Shown: positions 52,742 through 63,705 of the stretch, one piece after another
Layout of the letters: every line of letters starts with the position of its first letter
How positions within the stretch are numbered: position 1 is the first letter of the stretch
Assembly (NCBI GenBank): GCA_963799775.1
Contig: CAWCYD010000003.1
Location: 1,536,001-1,600,000, forward strand
Direction: 5' to 3'
DNA from: an uncultured archaeon
Lineage (GTDB): Archaea; Thermoproteota; Nitrososphaeria; Nitrososphaerales; Gagatemarchaeaceae
Length of the DNA: 64,000 nucleotides
The notes under the pieces: model-generated
What the model saw: only the letters and a program-made list of their open reading frames with translations
Told to the model about the DNA's origin: nothing
The model's database searches: none
Position numbers and translations under genes: made by a program

Positions 52742-54256
52742 TCACGCTTGAGCGCGGTCAGGTTGTGACAAGAAGATTTTGTTATAGAGATCCTCGCCAT
52801 AGCTGGTCTGCAAAGGCTCCCCTCGGATTATCTTGAAGGTGCGCTCTCCGCCTGCCCTTCTTTCTGCTCGGAGGAAGAGGACGTTTTCCGAGTTCCCCTC
52901 ATACAGACCCCTCGCAAACTCATGCTGGTGGGTGACGAAGAACACCTTCACGCTTCTCTCTAGCAAGGCCGTGACTATCTGCCTAGCAATCTCTGAACCT
53001 TCCCTCTCGTTGGTCGCAGAGAACGACTCGTTGAGCAGGACCATGCAATTTGCCTTTAGATGGTCCACGATCTCGCTCATCCTGGTTAGTTCCTCATCCA
53101 GTTTGCCGCTCCTCATGGTGGTGTCTTCCTCCCGTTTGAAGTGCGTGAAGAGGCCCTCGCATACGTCGGAGGAGAACGAGACCGCCGGCACGAACGCACC
53201 GCACTGCATCAGCAGCTGGGCCAGGCCTACGCTTCGCAAGAACGTCGACTTGCCTCCCCTGTTCGCACCCGTGACGACGACCAGGTCTTTCCCTTGGGCG
53301 TTCGCATCGTTGCTGACCACCTTGTTTCCCAGCTTCAGGGCGAGGCAGGCTTCGTACAGACCCTCAAATGATTGAGAGCGTTCGCCGCGACCTAGCACGA
53401 CGGGAAAGCAGGTGGGCTCGCCCATCTGGACAAGCCGCTCACGCAGGTTCAAACAACCGATGTAGAACGCCAGCTCCGTCCGCAGCGCGGTGAAGTAGGA
53501 GAGAACGGAGTCGCAAGACCGAGCGAGCGCATTTGCGATGGAGTTCAAGCCCCTCTCCTTCAGCTCCGAGAGCAGTCGGGGACCGAGTTCATCGCCTTCA
53601 GCTAGCTTGTACTCCCACTGAGACTTGGACTGGCCGGAGAAGACCTTGCTCAGCCAGCCTCGATCATCTTCCCGCGGCTTACGGAGCGTGTAATTCACAC
53701 CCTTGTTGCCGTTCCCGAGCTCGGCGCTGACCAGGGCTCCGTTTTTGAAGTTGAGGTCGCTCAGGCGGCCTTGGATGTCGACGATGTACTCGTCAGAAAG
53801 TTCTTCTTTGAGGGTCGCGAAGAAGGCCCTGAAGCCTTCTGACTCGAAGCTTCCGGAGTGATCATCGGCGATCCTCCTCAACTCCTTGAACTTGTCTGCA
53901 AGGAAATAGAGCACCTTTGCGGACCCGCGAAGAATCGAATCGGGAGATTTGTCGTACCAGAGCCATTGCTGCTGCTCCCCTTCGAGCGCCTCCACCGCGA
54001 TCCTGTAGATGTCCCTGACGGCGGAAGGATCTCTCAGGCAATCTTTGAGGACGTCTTGCCGGTACGATATCGCGTCGAGCTCTACCAGGCTGGTCAAGAC
54101 CGCCTTTCTAGCCACCTCGAGGAGGAATTTGTCGCCGCGCGCCATCCCGCCGAAGAGGACGTCTAACTCAAGGTCGCTCGTCAGCACTTTCTCGTTCTGC
54201 GGTAGTCTCTGCCCGAGGTCGAAGTCGCGGTCCCTGTGCATGAGGAAGACCTTCAT
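52742..54256 (-). CDS. MutS-related ATPase (domain V only, MutS4-like B)
   Basis: TGANRGGKSTFLRS, THFKREED, GKLDEEL, LLNESFSATN, FVTH. Confidence 0.88.
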   Translation of the reverse strand: MKVFLMHRDRDFDLGQRLPQNEKVLTSDLELDVLFGGMARGDKFLLEVARKAVLTSLVELDAISYRQDVLKDCLRDPSAVRDIYRIAVEALEGEQQQWLWYDKSPDSILRGSAKVLYFLADKFKELRRIADDHSGSFESEGFRAFFATLKEELSDEYIVDIQGRLSDLNFKNGALVSAELGNGNKGVNYTLRKPREDDRGWLSKVFSGQSKSQWEYKLAEGDELGPRLLSELKERGLNSIANALARSCDSVLSYFTALRTELAFYIGCLNLRERLVQMGEPTCFPVVLGRGERSQSFEGLYEACLALKLGNKVVSNDANAQGKDLVVVTGANRGGKSTFLRSVGLAQLLMQCGAFVPAVSFSSDVCEGLFTHFKREEDTTMRSGKLDEELTRMSEIVDHLKANCMVLLNESFSATNEREGSEIARQIVTALLERSVKVFFVTHQHEFARGLYEGNSENVLFLRAERRAGGERTFKIIRGEPLQTSYGEDLYNKIFLSQPDRAQA

Positions 54257-55785
54257 GATTTGATGCGCTCCTTCACGCTCTCGTAAGTGAGACGGTGCTT
54301 CTTGGCTATTGTCAGGGCGTAGGCGAGCCCGTCGGGAGGTAGTCTCACGATCTTGTACGTGCGCACTTCGGGGTTCTCTGGGACCACGGTGCTGAGGACG
54401 CTTACCGTCTTCTCAAGCGAGGACAGTTCGTCGAGGAATGTCACGTAGACGCAGAGCGAATCCAAACGTATTATCTGCTCGAGTATCGTCTTCCCCAGAA
54501 ACGTGGCGTCCTGTATAGTGCTCGAGCTGAACTCCTCGTTCACTATCACGATGCTGTTGGGCGTGCACCGACTCAGGATGGAGCGGATCCTGACCAGGTC
54601 GTCTTCCAGTTTGCTCCTGAGGTTGTCGATGTTCTCTTCTCGCGCGAAGTGCGTGAAGAGCTTGTCGAACAGGAAGAGCTGCGCCTCGGTGCCGGGGACG
54701 GGAAGGCCCAGGCTGGCCAAGTAATGCAGCTGTCCGAAGGCGCGGGCGAAGGTCGTCTTGCCGCCCTGGTTGGGTCCGTTCACCACGAATATCCGCTCAG
54801 TCCCCTTTAGGAAAAAGTCGTTGGAGACGACGGAAGACTTCGCACTTATCAGCTTGATCGCAAGGGCCAGGTCGAACCCCTCCAGACTGCTGACCTCCTT
54901 GCTCTTGTCTGAGACGAAGGGATAGCAAAAATGCAGCCCTGCGCTCTTGAGCCGCGCGACCAACCCTAGGTAAGCGACATAGAATTGAATCTCTCGATCG
55001 AACCTGGCCACCGTCTTGTCGAGGAAGTAGCGGTGTTCCGCGGAGTAGTCTCCAAGCCTTCGGAACACGTCGGGATAGAGCGTCGCGACCAACTCCAGCG
55101 CGGCCTCCTGGATGTGGTTTGTGCCGGGCCCGTCGGAAAACTCGACCCGGTAGTCCTTTCCCGTCCCCTGCCTGAATTTCTCGAACACGCGCTCCATCTC
55201 CTCGCCATAGTCGACTTCGCCTTCGTACTTGCGGACCGTGAACTGGTCGTGCTCTATGAGCAGGCAGTATCTTGCGGCGGAAAGGTCAGCCCTCAGCTTC
55301 TTCGTTTCAGCGGCAAGCGAGCGGAAGGCGGCCGACTCGGCATAGCCCTTCAGGTATTCGAAGATGGCCAAAAAGCCGCGAGATCTCAAGGGTCGAGTGG
55401 CAAGGTCGGCCGCCAGGCAACCGATGGCCTCGCAGTATTTCTCGACCGCGCTCAGCAACCAGCCTTGCTTGTTGTATGTGTACATTAGCCTGTTCGCGAG
55501 GTCCAGATATTGGCGCATCGTCCGCATCCTCAGTGCGAACGACTCGATCACGTCATAGGTCCCCGCGCTTTCGAGCTCTTGCATTATCTCATGACGGTAC
55601 TTGATGGCGTCGACGCTCTTCAAAGGGGCAAGGAAGAACGGCCGAAGGGCATACTCCTCCTTCCCGGCCGTCATGGCGTCTACTACCTGGTCGAGGTTCA
55701 GGTCGACGAAGAAGTCCGGGGCCTGGGGAGTCTCCCCCTTTACGCCATCTCCCGCGCCCTCGAACAGGATGCTTTGGAAGGTCAT
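54253..55785 (-). CDS. MutS-related ATPase (domain V only, MutS4-like A)
   Basis: DLNLDQ, NGPNQGGKTTFAR, THFAREE, VNEEFSSST; ATGA-coupled to partner. Confidence 0.88.
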   Translation of the reverse strand: MTFQSILFEGAGDGVKGETPQAPDFFVDLNLDQVVDAMTAGKEEYALRPFFLAPLKSVDAIKYRHEIMQELESAGTYDVIESFALRMRTMRQYLDLANRLMYTYNKQGWLLSAVEKYCEAIGCLAADLATRPLRSRGFLAIFEYLKGYAESAAFRSLAAETKKLRADLSAARYCLLIEHDQFTVRKYEGEVDYGEEMERVFEKFRQGTGKDYRVEFSDGPGTNHIQEAALELVATLYPDVFRRLGDYSAEHRYFLDKTVARFDREIQFYVAYLGLVARLKSAGLHFCYPFVSDKSKEVSSLEGFDLALAIKLISAKSSVVSNDFFLKGTERIFVVNGPNQGGKTTFARAFGQLHYLASLGLPVPGTEAQLFLFDKLFTHFAREENIDNLRSKLEDDLVRIRSILSRCTPNSIVIVNEEFSSSTIQDATFLGKTILEQIIRLDSLCVYVTFLDELSSLEKTVSVLSTVVPENPEVRTYKIVRLPPDGLAYALTIAKKHRLTYESVKERIKS

Positions 55786-59781: not shown

Positions 59782-60166
59782 CTACTTTCCGAAGAGCTCG
59801 ATGTAGATCCCGTTCGGGTCCTTGATGTAGGTCCAGCGGCTCGTCTTCGTCTTCATGTCGAGCACGACGGGATAGCCCGCCTTCTCGGCCTGCGCAAGGG
59901 CCTTTGGGAGGTCTTCGACCTGGAAGGCCAGGTGGTCTAATGCCTCGCCAACGCCGTATTTCGTGTCAAAGTCGCTCCCCTTGCCATAGAAGTTCAGCTC
60001 GAGGAGGTGCCCTCCCTCTTCGCTCACGAGGCCCACGGTCTCCCCCTTCGTCGACTCGATCTTCGTCCTGCCCGTGACCTTCATCCCGATGAACCTTGGT
60101 GTAGAACTCGATGGACTTGTCCATGTCTTTGACCCTGATGCCCGTGTAGATGAGACGCGCCTTCAT
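59782..60166 (-). CDS. VOC/glyoxalase family protein, frameshifted
   Basis: YTGIRVKDMDKSIEFYT + LLELN, DHLAFQV, DPNGIYIEL. Confidence 0.85.
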
Positions 60167-60535
60167 TCGCGTAATGTCGTCCTGAGCGGGCATTAAGCTT
60201 TGCAGATTTTTGCGCGGAGGTCGATTACGTTCTCTAGCTGCCTGACATAATCGTCAAAGGACTCTGCGTCACGTTCCCAAGCCCTGACGAGGCGCCTCTT
60301 GTAGGCTCCCTCAACTCTTCTGAGAAACTCGCACGCGTCTTGCTCTGACATTGCGCGCGCCCTTCACCGCCAGGTCGACTCTCTCCAGATACCAACGGTC
60401 GGGCTTGGCGAGAATCTCCTTCAAATTCTCTGTGGAATTCGTCGTCTTCGGGAGAAGGCATCGTCACCTACGTGTAATGATGCGGGACGTAATAAACACC
60501 GATGCGAGCCTGCGCTCGATTTCCTTTCTCTCTAG

Positions 60536-61033
60536 CTAGCCGCCGGCCACTGCGGGGATGAAGTCGACCTCGTCCCCATTCCGCAGAGAAGCGCTCTTTG
60601 AGGCGGGGACGCCGTCTATGAGAATCATCATCGTCGGAATCATCGGGCTCATGGTTGGATGTTTCTGCGTGACTTGGGCGAGAAGGTCGCTGAAGTAAGC
60701 GGGAGTCTGGAGGACGAAGTACTCCTCCTTCACGCCTACAGCTAGGGGCATCTGAAAATACGACGCCTTGACCCTGACCGAAGAGCCGGAGGCGGTCACA
60801 ATCGGCGCAGCCTGGGACACCTGAGGCGTCGACGAAGCTGACGATGTGGTGGTCTCGGCAAATCCGCTGAGCAGCGATGACTGGGTGTTCTTGGAAGGAG
60901 TGGCATCCCCTGCAGCCGCCCTTCCAGCGGCACCAAGGAGGACCAACCCTGCGCCGACGGCAGAGAAGAGAAGCGCCGATTTCAGCAACCGGCGCCTGGA
61001 GATTCCCTTCTCGTCGTCAGAGGTCGAGGCCAA
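60536..61033 (-). CDS. Tat-signal-bearing MoaD/ThiS/SAMP ubiquitin-like protein
   Basis: SRRRLLK + hydrophobic helix + AAA site; Ser/Thr linker; beta-grasp ILIDG...LRNGDEVDFIPAVAGG*. Confidence 0.82.
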   Translation of the reverse strand: MASTSDDEKGISRRRLLKSALLFSAVGAGLVLLGAAGRAAAGDATPSKNTQSSLLSGFAETTTSSASSTPQVSQAAPIVTASGSSVRVKASYFQMPLAVGVKEEYFVLQTPAYFSDLLAQVTQKHPTMSPMIPTMMILIDGVPASKSASLRNGDEVDFIPAVAGG

Positions 61034-61050
61034 GGCGTGCGTCCACTATC

Positions 61051-62432
61051 CTAGGGCGCCGCCTTCACCACCACCGTGCCCTGCATCCAGGGGTGATAGG
61101 AGCAACCGTATTGGTAGGTGCCCGGCGAGGTGAAGGTGTAGGTGAACGTGTCGCCAGTGTTCATCTGGCCTGAGTCGAAGCTGTGGTCGGTGGCTGTCAC
61201 AGTGTGAGGCGCCACGTCGTTGTTGGTCCACTGGACGGTGTTGTTGACGCCAATCACCACGGTGATCTTCGCTGGGGAGTATCCGGGACCTGCTACGTTC
61301 GTCTCGGAGCCTTGTGGGATGCTGATGTGGACCTGTGCGGCCACAGCGCTCGTGCTAGTAGTCGTCGAGGTGGTCGCCGTCGTCGAAGCCACCTTGAAGA
61401 TGCCCTCGTCCCCCTTTGGAACGAACTCGAACTGGTGGGTGACGAAGGGGTTCTTGCCGCCGGGGCCCTTGAAGTACATGTCGACTATCGCACCTCCGGA
61501 GGGTGGGATGTTCAACGTCTGCAGTCCGTACTCGGCGTTCGCGGGATTGCCGTCGATGTAGGTCGTGTTGAAGAGCGCTCCGATGACGTGAAAGGCGCTC
61601 CACTGGTTTGGCCCCGCGTTGAGGATGAACAGCCTTACGAGTTGGTTAGGCAGCACCGGCAGGGGCTTGGTGACATACCCGTTGGCCTTGGCGTTGAAGA
61701 CCACGTAGGTCGGGTCCCTCCAAGCATCCTGGTGTAGTTGCCCGCGTAGTTTCCGTCCGAGCCGGGATTGTTGTTCAGGTAGAACTCGCTCTGGAGGATG
61801 TAGTACGTCCCGCCGGGGGACGGAGGCAACGGCGTCGACGGGTTCACGACTATCATGCCATACATCCCGTTCGCGATGTGCTCTATGGCGGGCGACGTCC
61901 CGCAGTGATACATGAACACGCCTGGGTAGTCCGCTGTGAAGTTGAATGTGATTGACTGGCCCGGTGCGACTGGTTGGTAGTCTACTCCCCAATTTACTTG
62001 ACCGGCGTGGAAGTCGATTGAGTGGGCCATGGTCGTGAAGTTGTTGATGAACTTCGCGATAATGAGGTCGCCCTGGTTGACTATGATCGTCGGGCCTGGG
62101 ACGGTCCCGTTGAAGGTCCACGCGTCATAGGTCACGTTTGTAGCTAGAGTGATGACCTCGGGCTTGGCGACCAGCGTGACATGCCGGGTGGTAGGCGCTA
62201 TCTTCGCGACCGACGTTGTGGCGGCAAGCGTCTGAGTAGATTGCTGCGACGTCGATGTCGAGCCCGAAGAAGACGAGAGCTGGGACTGCAACCCCCTAAT
62301 CTGGTCGAGCTGGGACGCGGCGATGCTGCTAAAGCTCAGACTGAGCAGTATCAATACTAGCGCAACGGCCGCGAGGACCGCGGCAAACCTTCCGTCGGAG
62401 ATCCCCTTCCTTGTGCGGCTCTGAAGTCTCAA
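61051..62432 (-). CDS. nirK: Copper-containing nitrite reductase-like protein with C-terminal cupredoxin, frameshift near 61715
   Basis: HSIDFH, YHC, H..NGMYG, FHVIG, VTHQF (T1/T2 ligands plus catalytic Asp/His); C-terminal PHTVT...CSYHPWM. Confidence 0.85.
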
Positions 62433-62579: not shown

Positions 62580-63004
62580 ATGGGGCAGAGGAACCTCGGC
62601 AGGATATCGCCCCTAAAGAGAGACCACAGGGCCGTCGAGCGGTTGCTGCTTGGGCTGACCCTGCTTGTGGAGGACGCTGACTCGCCTCCCGGCGATGTCT
62701 CCGACTCGGTCGATGGAGCCTGGGCAAGATCATCGAGCGACACTTCCTCGACGAGGAGCGCAGCGTCTACGAGCCGCTCAAACAGAGCCTCGGCAGGGGC
62801 AACCCGGTTTACATCATGGCCGAAGATCACCGGGTGATGCGGCAGACCCTGCGGCGGTTGCTCGCAGCCTCGAGCGAGTGGACGAAGGGCCCACGTGGCG
62901 CCGTAGACGTCCGCTCCCAGCTCGGGTCTCTCCAGGCCCAGTTGGCCGCGCACTTTGAGAAGGAGGAGGCGGTGCTCTTCTGGCTCGCGGAACTGAAGCT
63001 CTGA
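62580..63004 (+). CDS. Hemerythrin (HHE) domain protein, multiple frameshifts
   Basis: LKRDHRAVE; shifted HFLDEE; MAEDH...HFEKEE..LF. Confidence 0.7.
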
Positions 63005-63057: not shown

Positions 63058-63705
63058 ATGCTAGAGGCGGTGTTGCTGTGTCCGCAGCCCCACAGCTGGA
63101 TTGAGATCGCCGCGAATAGGTTCTCGGGGAGCGTGGAGATCCTCGACTCGAAGATGCTCCCGAAGGACGCCGTGCAGCACCTCTTCGACATCCAAGTCAA
63201 GCCTGAGCTGACGAAGCACCTCCTCTCCGCCCTTGAACAAGACAAGGACCTCATCGACATTGAGACCCTCAAGTCGAAGAGCGGGCACGTCTACGGATCC
63301 GCGACGTCTCTCAGATGCACGGTCTGCAAGGACGTGGTCAAGTCGAAGTGCTTCCTCGCCTCGGTCGACGTAACATCGGACGGGGCGAAGTGGACTGTAA
63401 TCGGGAACAACGAATCCTTCAGGGAGCTCCTCGGATCGCTCGAGAAGCACAAGATCCCCTTCGAGGTGAAGATGAAGAGGAATCTGGAGGACACGGAGTT
63501 GCTCACCGGGAGGCAAGAGCAACTTCTCGCGATCGCGTTCGAGAGGGGATACTTCGACTTTCCCAAGAAGGTGGGGCTCGAGGAACTCGCAGCCCTCGCC
63601 GACGTGAAGACATCGACGCTCGCGGAGATCCTCCGCAGAGGACAGAAGAAGATCCTGGGAGAGTACCTAGCGAGACGTTCTCTTCTGCACAAGAGTAGAG
63701 AATAG
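63058..63705 (+). CDS. Bat/DmsR/NarO-type HTH_10 transcriptional regulator with Cys-containing N-terminal domain
   Basis: LTGRQEQLL.IAFERGYFDFPKKVGLEELA...LAEILRRGQKK; CPQPH, CTVC, KC. Confidence 0.9.
   Translation: MLEAVLLCPQPHSWIEIAANRFSGSVEILDSKMLPKDAVQHLFDIQVKPELTKHLLSALEQDKDLIDIETLKSKSGHVYGSATSLRCTVCKDVVKSKCFLASVDVTSDGAKWTVIGNNESFRELLGSLEKHKIPFEVKMKRNLEDTELLTGRQEQLLAIAFERGYFDFPKKVGLEELAALADVKTSTLAEILRRGQKKILGEYLARRSLLHKSRE

Follow-up and report, generated by a model that had tools for sequence, protein, structure and literature searches.

A putatively Tat-exported MoaD/ThiS-like protein with a free di-glycine end, encoded next to nirK in an uncultured archaeon of the Nitrososphaerales

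The window analysed here is a stretch of 64,000 nucleotides (nt) from an uncultured archaeon of the Gagatemarchaeaceae (Nitrososphaerales; contig CAWCYD010000003.1). Directly after its nirK gene, on the same strand, lies a gene for a small protein in which a twin-arginine translocation (Tat)-type signal and a Ser/Thr-rich spacer precede a MoaD/ThiS beta-grasp domain with a free di-glycine (GG) end. At a probability of about one half, we propose that this protein is exported by Tat and serves as an accessory partner of the extracytoplasmic copper nitrite reductase NirK, acting via the region of its GG tail. The protein family and the fold are known; the export signal, the location and the linkage to nirK appear to be new.

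The gene is real. An earlier note on this DNA had pointed out the open reading frame (ORF), its distance of 17 nt from the nirK stop, an SRRRLLK motif and the free GG end, and all of these were confirmed on the sequence: the nirK TAG occupies 61051..61053, the 17 nt at 61034..61050 separate it from the TTG, and the protein ends in DEVDFIPAVAGG, followed at once by a stop codon. An in-frame stop lies four codons 5′ of the TTG, and the start codons in frame ahead of the domain are limited to the TTG at 61033 and one within the RRRLL motif. Codon changes in residues 1–42 amount to 12 synonymous versus 10 non-synonymous in comparison with the relative at locus L001 and to 6 versus 8 with that at L048, which indicates that the N-terminal signal part is translated and under constraint. 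In the spacer, the same two comparisons give 11–12 synonymous versus 19–21 non-synonymous changes. The 42 residues of the spacer include 11 Ser, 7 Thr and 6 Ala, and the uncharged stretch ahead of it ends in the sequence GRAAAG. The window protein carries no Cys and nothing beyond the GG, which excludes a lipoprotein or a C-terminal sorting signal.

The assignment of the domain to the ubiquitin-like SAMP/MoaD type, also made in the earlier note, is borne out by family models, structure prediction and structural comparison. Residues 103–165 match the Pfam model ThiS (PF02597) up to the model end (E 2.1e-8; 35 bits versus a cut-off of 22.5), and the same model is above its cut-off in 91 of the 93 aligned family members. 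An AlphaFold2 (AF2) model built on the alignment of 93 relatives has a predicted local distance difference test score (pLDDT) of 95–98 over residues 85–160, with the strand and helix order of a beta-grasp; residues 1–84 reach 53–63, with a low-confidence helix at 13–23. The best Foldseek matches are mycobacterial and Pyrococcus MoaD (6jc0, 6jbz, 1vjk) and Haloferax SAMP1 (3po0, 4hro), at target-normalised template modelling scores of 0.77–0.85, and the profile of the 93 relatives finds the sequences of solved MoaD proteins (1vjk, E 1.4e-12; 6jbz, E 2e-10). A comparison with the Protein Atlas placed an archaeal 'ThiS family' cluster of 71 members first (score 0.94), with all other clusters at 0.77 or below. 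The NCBIfam models for named members stayed below their cut-offs: TIGR01682 (moaD) gave 21.2 bits versus 66.15, TIGR01687 20.6 versus 49.5, SAMP1 (NF041918) 13 versus 60 and Urm1-like (NF053661) 12.5 versus 70. The window protein is a member of the ThiS/MoaD family and not an equivalog of any named member.

Several residues set the family apart from classical MoaD. Twelve positions are conserved at 90% or more in the 93 aligned sequences (Y92, M95, E104, P111, H125, M131, M135, G141, L150, E155, D157 and P160), and four fixed residues are family-specific: M95 (86/93), M131 (88/93), M135 (92/93) and D157 (85/93). Methionine makes up 5.4% of the domain in the family versus 1.6% in 15 classical MoaD-like sequences. 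The domain lacks Cys in 88 of the 93 sequences and usually has a single His, with H125 common to the family and classical MoaD. The tail reads IPAxAGG, versus PPVxGG in classical MoaD. Since the ends of strand 1, helix 1 and strand 5, the short second helix and the start of strand 3 face the tail exit, M95, M131, M135, D157 and H125 should gather round the base of the tail in the modelled fold.

A word-indexed search returned 19 relatives of 93–174 amino acids (aa), all with a precomputed ThiS domain, and an exhaustive search returned 128 clusters (50% identity) at E ≤ 1e-3, 85 of them at E ≤ 1e-10. The GG stands at the C-terminus in 136 of 144 stored sequences, and in 97 of the 103 that are 110–180 aa long. 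The 93-sequence alignment, which omits rows below 110 aa and the four sequences with the highest E-values in the length range (P0125, P0129, P0133 and P0141), keeps the GG in every row, while identity to the window protein drops to 23–30% in the most distant ones. The earlier note had regarded a loss of the GG among homologues, or a chimeric origin of the fusion, as damaging to its proposal; the GG is conserved, and the fusion of a Tat signal with a ubiquitin-like protein (Ubl) is genuine: the window protein has at least 93 diverged family members, 69 of which show an RR followed by an uncharged stretch.

Among 400 genomes sampled across the phylum, four matched at E ≤ 1e-8, none with a signal-bearing protein: at two loci (L014 and L015) a MoaD domain runs into a longer C-terminal part with no signal, and we take these, as read from the sequence and not from a family scan, as putative MoaD–MoaE fusions; the other two (L016 and L017) are short classical forms. 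The neighbouring family f2 (56 genomes) gave no match. Five of the weaker matches within the window's own family (E 1e-10 to 1e-17; L031, L034, L035, L037 and L040) were read and are classical MoaD-like proteins with no signal. No fused form was found among proteins of 290–2000 aa at E ≤ 1e-3, a search that is weak evidence.

The N-terminal segment is of the Tat type. We used a crude, home-made rule rather than TatFind or SignalP: a twin arginine (RR) and then, within 8 residues, at least 12 uncharged residues. It is satisfied by 69 of the 93 relatives, with the consensus I-S-R-R-R-L-L-K/R, a median stretch of 19 residues and a mean Kyte–Doolittle value of 1.83, and a K or R closes the uncharged stretch in 41 of the 69. 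Among the remaining 24, most have their first annotated residue within the hydrophobic stretch, suggesting that the start codon was placed too far downstream; the others have KR or fall one residue short of the length threshold. Homologues that lack the segment or start internally, a possibility raised in the earlier note, are not what the family as a whole displays. As background, the loose rule is satisfied by 314 of the 5147 ORFs in the window's genome that have a length of 120 aa or more; a stricter consensus retains 33 of the 5147, including the window protein and several textbook-looking RRxFL proteins. The machinery is encoded as well: the window's genome has a TatC (122.7 bits) and two TatA genes (32.4 and 31.5 bits), one of them adjoining tatC, and TatC is present in all five related carriers.

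Elsewhere on the plus strand of the contig (G000:C3), near 1239104 and 1443496, two small ORFs (157 and 184 aa) have RRRFLK- and RREFIR-type N-termini and Ser/Thr-rich spacers. A Tat signal followed by a spacer may be a common build of small exported proteins in this lineage.

The 81 stretches on which linkage to nirK was assessed comprise the window, 4 genome loci and, in addition, 13 loci of related genomes and 63 from metagenomes. A usable domain match was present in 80, which group into 55 clusters (identity of at least 90%); 44 of these were assessable, and the other 11 have too little upstream sequence. The immediate upstream neighbour is nirK, on the same strand, in 37 of the 44 assessable clusters, while 7 lack it there; because the loci were fished by the motif DEVDFIP(A) and are mutually related, this count is neither unbiased nor a count of independent events. 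Recurrence of the linkage, in which the earlier note had seen a test of its idea, is nonetheless clear. nirK is upstream in all four genome loci, two of which (L003 and L004) keep it despite downstream genes other than those of the window. The gap is 9–18 nt in the four genome loci and the window, and at L069 and L090 the nirK stop overlaps the listed start of the MoaD-like gene. In a quick and mostly unresolved tree, nirK-linked rows are spread over the whole family and the unlinked rows are nested among them. Across the taxonomic family (97 genomes), a strong full- or near-full-length match was found in 13 genomes, one of them with two copies, and nirK at E ≤ 1e-40 in 18; in 10 genomes the two genes occur together and adjoin. 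Strong as it is, the link to nirK is not obligatory.

The copies found away from nirK have contexts of their own. At L119 (G433:C5) and L120 (G432:C1), the paralogue follows a multi-pass membrane protein of PF09819 ('ABC_cobalt'); a metal ABC transporter of the ZnuA/ABC-3 type and a PQQ-type propeller of 760 aa lie within a few kb. At L121 (G433:C7)/L047, a second paralogue directly precedes the gene for a propeller longer than 480 aa with a Vgb_lyase-family match; this propeller bears an RR at its N-terminus and numerous N-x-S/T sites, and genes for cytochrome b and a 4Fe-4S dicluster protein are near. These contexts are extracytoplasmic or metal-related. Further unlinked contexts are L055, L063/L064, L100 and L107: L064 lies beside CMD and SDR genes, and at L100 a MoaD-like ORF whose N-terminal part is missing (83 aa from stop to stop) sits between two regulators, with no nirK. 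In the sub-clade of L084 and L100, a short Oxidored_molyb ORF (176–178 aa, sulfite-oxidase-type) and an HTH_20 regulator were also seen nearby.

In the window, nirK is read in two overlapping frames (overlap 61635..62121), and neither of the two split pieces, at 128.6 and 49.6 bits, reaches the NCBIfam TIGR02376 cut-off of 296.3 bits. Behind 61711, a short-read contig of run X1 contains an additional G (depth 3, a single contig); this run may share its sample with the window. With this G the nirK frame is open for 462 aa, at 74.6% identity to the intact NirK of L001. Because the extra G restores a single frame, the split is probably an indel of a long-read-style assembly and not the mark of a pseudogene. 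The best PDB matches of the intact L001 protein are copper nitrite reductases (E 4.8e-59). The ligands of the type 1 and type 2 copper sites and the catalytic Asp and His (H132, D135, H137, H171, C172, H180, M185, H277 and H328), as well as a second type 1 site in the C-terminal cupredoxin domain, are all invariant across 30 NirK copies, and the protein is predicted to be functional in type.

At its N-terminus every NirK copy carries a hydrophobic helix, in some copies with RR and in others without, together with a Ser-rich spacer. NirK would thus need no carrier, and we rejected the idea that it hitch-hikes on the signal of the MoaD-like protein; the piggy-back export tag suggested in the earlier note finds no direct support for NirK, nor do the charging or conjugation before export and the surface modifier that it also proposed. 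Two further observations concern this N-terminus: an RR precedes the helix in about half of the copies, and most copies (L004, L060, L067 and others) have the motif DTxQSLxxQISSLQSQ between the helix and the Ser-rich spacer.

We hypothesize that the MoaD-like protein is produced together with NirK from the same strand, as the short gap here and the stop/start overlap in some relatives would allow. It would fold in the cytoplasm and then cross the membrane by TatA/TatC via its RR signal. On the outer face it would be tethered by an uncleaved signal or freed at the small-residue site behind the hydrophobic stretch, and the flexible Ser/Thr spacer would keep the domain away from the membrane. Since a hydrophobic N-terminal helix and a comparable spacer are also present in NirK, both proteins would occupy the same layer. 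The MoaD-like protein would be a small, dispensable accessory of NirK, and its paralogues would serve other extracytoplasmic metal or redox proteins.

The working part of the protein would be the end of the domain where the free GG tail exits. For its mode of action, we tentatively prefer a non-covalent docking of the tail into a partner; the terminal carboxylate could then reach a copper site, by analogy with the MoaD tail that enters MoaE. That the tail end holds Cu(I) for delivery, an idea that overlaps with docking, is in our view unlikely. Equally unlikely is that the GG end is charged or thiocarboxylated by an E1-type activating enzyme (E1), exported folded by Tat and used, together with the fixed Met and His residues, as a mobile sulfur or Cu(I) arm for NirK and other cuproenzymes or metalloenzymes.

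Several results weigh against the proposal of a Tat-exported NirK accessory. In 8 of the 18 nirK genomes, no MoaD-like gene was found round nirK (tblastn, E ≤ 10, in the fetched stretches, one of which offers about 280 nt of downstream sequence), and the same eight genomes have no family member elsewhere at E ≤ 1e-10. Conversely, G433, with its two copies, and G432 carry the MoaD-like gene and no nirK at E ≤ 1e-40. Within NirK, no alignment column distinguishes the 24 sequences that have a partner from the 6 that lack one. As to the signal, the Pfam model TAT_signal (PF10518) matches 4 of the 93 relatives at E ≤ 0.1, the window protein not among them; NCBIfam Tat-region matches are weak (E 0.04–0.06), and there is no TIGR01409 match, PF10518 and TIGR01409 being short and insensitive models. 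As to the tail, M131 and M135 fall where classical MoaD-like sequences carry Leu, Met or Ile and may be packing residues rather than ligands; the fixation of Met at these sites is unusual, yet no proof of a ligand role. The cluster of residues at the tail base is read from the strand order of the AF2 model and not from measured distances. Co-folding of NirK residues 70–455 with residues 82–166 of the MoaD-like domain scored 0.13 versus a mark of 0.32, in a run without controls, and speaks neither for nor against the partnership.

Among the alternatives, the one that survives best holds that the protein is activated before export: a cytoplasmic E1 would adenylate the GG, giving a thiocarboxylate or a protein conjugate that Tat then exports, so that the tail would serve as a covalent tag or as a swinging arm that bears sulfur or binds Cu(I), and the protein would be a ubiquitin-fold counterpart of SoxY. 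The GG is invariant even at the lowest identities in the alignment, E1 chemistry is the established reason for a GG end in the known MoaD, ThiS and SAMP families, and the tail DEVDFIPAxAGG retains the classical DGDEV..PPVxGG pattern. Tat carries folded proteins, and the ATP needed for activation exists inside the cell only. A ThiF-family E1 is present in all five related carriers (274–287 bits). In the window's genome, on the other hand, the best ThiF match (19.9 bits) is under the cut-off of 28.1 in an assembly rated 81.7% complete, where the enzyme may lie in the unassembled part or be broken by indels. No gene for an E1, a JAMM protease or a sulfurtransferase adjoins in any locus inspected, and the other small RR proteins with Ser/Thr spacers suggest that Tat may simply be the usual route in this genome. 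NirK has no need for sulfide, and we know of no exported thiocarboxylate. On balance, we consider activation before export rather unlikely.

A second alternative accepts export and denies partnership: the protein would be a general metal-handling or Met-rich redox-buffer factor that sits in a nitrite- or NO-responsive gene cluster for regulatory reasons only. The nirK-free copies speak for it, beside the ZnuA-type transporter, the PF09819 protein and the PQQ propeller (L119 and L120), near cytochrome b and FeS genes (L121), between regulators (L100) and next to CMD and SDR genes (L064), as do the eight genomes in which nirK stands without it and the HTH_10 regulator and hemerythrin that accompany the cluster. 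We nevertheless find it quite improbable, given the same-strand position immediately after nirK in most assessable clusters with gaps of 9–18 nt or overlaps, the persistence of the link where the downstream genes differ and the nesting of unlinked copies among linked ones in the quick tree.

That the protein is not exported at all but an ordinary cytoplasmic MoaD or SAMP, its first 84 residues untranslated or an anchor that leaves the domain inside, is hardly credible: the TTG start, the lack of a match to curated Tat models and the database relatives annotated from internal starts without RR are outweighed by the scarcity of start codons ahead of the domain below a stop four codons upstream, by an RR segment kept in frame in 69 of 93 relatives with about equal synonymous and non-synonymous changes, by positive charges ahead of the hydrophobic stretch, an arrangement that under the positive-inside rule would place the C-terminal part outside, by three other, classical ThiS-family genes (86–112 aa) in the genome, and by NCBIfam scores far under the cut-offs of the moaD, SAMP1 and Urm1 equivalog models.

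Our preferred reading, a Tat-exported accessory of NirK, can be set beside known systems. With MoaD and SAMP1 the family shares PF02597, the beta-grasp fold and the DGDEV...GG free di-glycine end; it differs by adding a Tat-type signal and a 40-residue Ser/Thr spacer, by following nirK and not moaE, moeB or other cofactor genes, and by its fixed Met95, Met131, Met135 and Asp157 and the IPAxAGG in place of PPVxGG. SoxY is a small Tat-exported periplasmic sulfur carrier whose working group, a Cys in GGCGG, sits on a flexible Gly-rich C-terminal arm. The small-carrier design is alike, and the NCBIfam SoxY model weakly matches the signal and spacer (E 0.056), whereas the folds are unrelated, with no domain homology, and the family here mostly lacks Cys and ends in GG. 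NirV is exported, is encoded directly downstream of nirK in many bacteria and is thought to aid NirK maturation. An exported protein gene right after nirK is thus the common feature, but NirV belongs to an unrelated protein family, and the inspected loci showed no NirV-like gene.

CusF, CopC and PCuAC are small extracytoplasmic Cu(I) chaperones with Met and His ligands, found in copper-enzyme contexts. Their folds are different, with no sequence or fold match here, and the fixed Met residues of our family stand at positions that are hydrophobic in classical MoaD. In Tat 'hitch-hiker' pairs, the small subunit bears the signal. The window has the same picture of a small RR-signal protein beside a larger redox enzyme, unlike those pairs in that NirK has an anchor of its own.

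Full-text literature searches, partly blunted by the ambiguity of 'ThiS' and 'this', returned no Tat-bearing or secreted MoaD/ThiS protein. Term searches in comparative work on archaeal Ubls and on beta-grasp domains (PMC2948915, PMC1949818) gave none either. As far as this literature reaches, it agrees with the earlier note, whose author knew of no described exported archaeal Ubl.

Besides the gene described here, the window's genome (G000; 2.47 Mb, 3 contigs) has three ThiS-family genes of the classical kind, in open frames of 86–173 aa; the one that was read from its start codon measures 93 aa. AmoA was found in none of four family genomes, namely the window's and three single-contig relatives rated 93–100% complete, and was present as a control in both genomes searched from a neighbouring family of the same order. 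By this gene content, the window's archaeon belongs to a family of Nitrososphaerales that does not oxidise ammonia.

The neighbours of the MoaD-like gene are nirK, hemerythrin, HTH_10, glyoxalase and TiaS genes, with no moaE or other molybdenum cofactor genes (Table 1). The HTH_10 gene is kept in all four genome loci and in the metagenome loci L069, L090 and L100, and its product is a candidate regulator of the pair of nirK and the MoaD-like gene. Intact hemerythrin homologues of 140–152 aa occupy the same place in L001 and L002; relative to the split window copy, short-read contigs have two 1-nt deletions, at 62714 and 62718. The splits of nirK, hemerythrin and glyoxalase suggest scattered single-base indels, which may also lower the completeness estimate of 81.7%. 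Farther away, at 52742..55785 on the minus strand, the window has two adjacent ORFs of about 505 aa each with P-loop motifs; an ORF at L001, presumed to be their counterpart without an alignment, matches MutS domain V.

Table 1. Coordinates in the window of the Tat-signal MoaD/ThiS-like gene, its parts and the surrounding genes.
Feature	Coordinates	Strand	Remarks
Whole gene, Tat-signal MoaD/ThiS-like protein	60536..61033	-	165 aa; TTG start; TAG stop at 60536..60538
Codons of R13-R14-R15 in the ISRRRLLK twin-arginine motif	60989..60997	-	family consensus I-S-R-R-R-L-L-K/R
Uncharged hydrophobic stretch S19–G37 (h-region), then R38 and AAAG	60923..60979	-	
Ser/Thr/Ala-rich spacer, residues 43–84	60782..60907	-	length and sequence vary among relatives
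MoaD/ThiS beta-grasp domain, residues 85–165 (81 aa)	60539..60781	-	
Codons of C-terminal G164-G165	60539..60544	-	stop codon immediately after
nirK, copper nitrite reductase core and C-terminal cupredoxin domain	61051..62432	-	window frames 61635..62432 and 61051..62121
Split hemerythrin-like gene, oriented divergently from nirK	62580..63004	+	Pfam Hemerythrin at 62816..63004
HTH_10 family (bacterio-opsin-activator-type) regulator, far side of nirK	63058..63705	+	
Glyoxalase-family gene, two overlapping ORFs (100 and 75 aa)	59782..60193	-	L002 homologue is a single 127-aa ORF

To our knowledge, proteins of the MoaD, ThiS, SAMP, Urm1 and ubiquitin type are treated as strictly intracellular, since their GG end requires ATP-dependent activation. 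A GG end that is unchanged and yet preceded by a signal for exporting folded proteins would mean either that the GG is used outside in an ATP-independent manner or that charged carriers are exported, and both would be new. If a charged carrier were indeed exported, it would be the first ubiquitin-type carrier outside the cytoplasm, and chemistry energised in the cytoplasm would be taken across the membrane. For this soil and peat relative of the ammonia-oxidising archaea, itself non-ammonia-oxidising, a conserved and co-encoded small partner may offer a handle on how archaeal NirK gains its copper and its partners outside the membrane.

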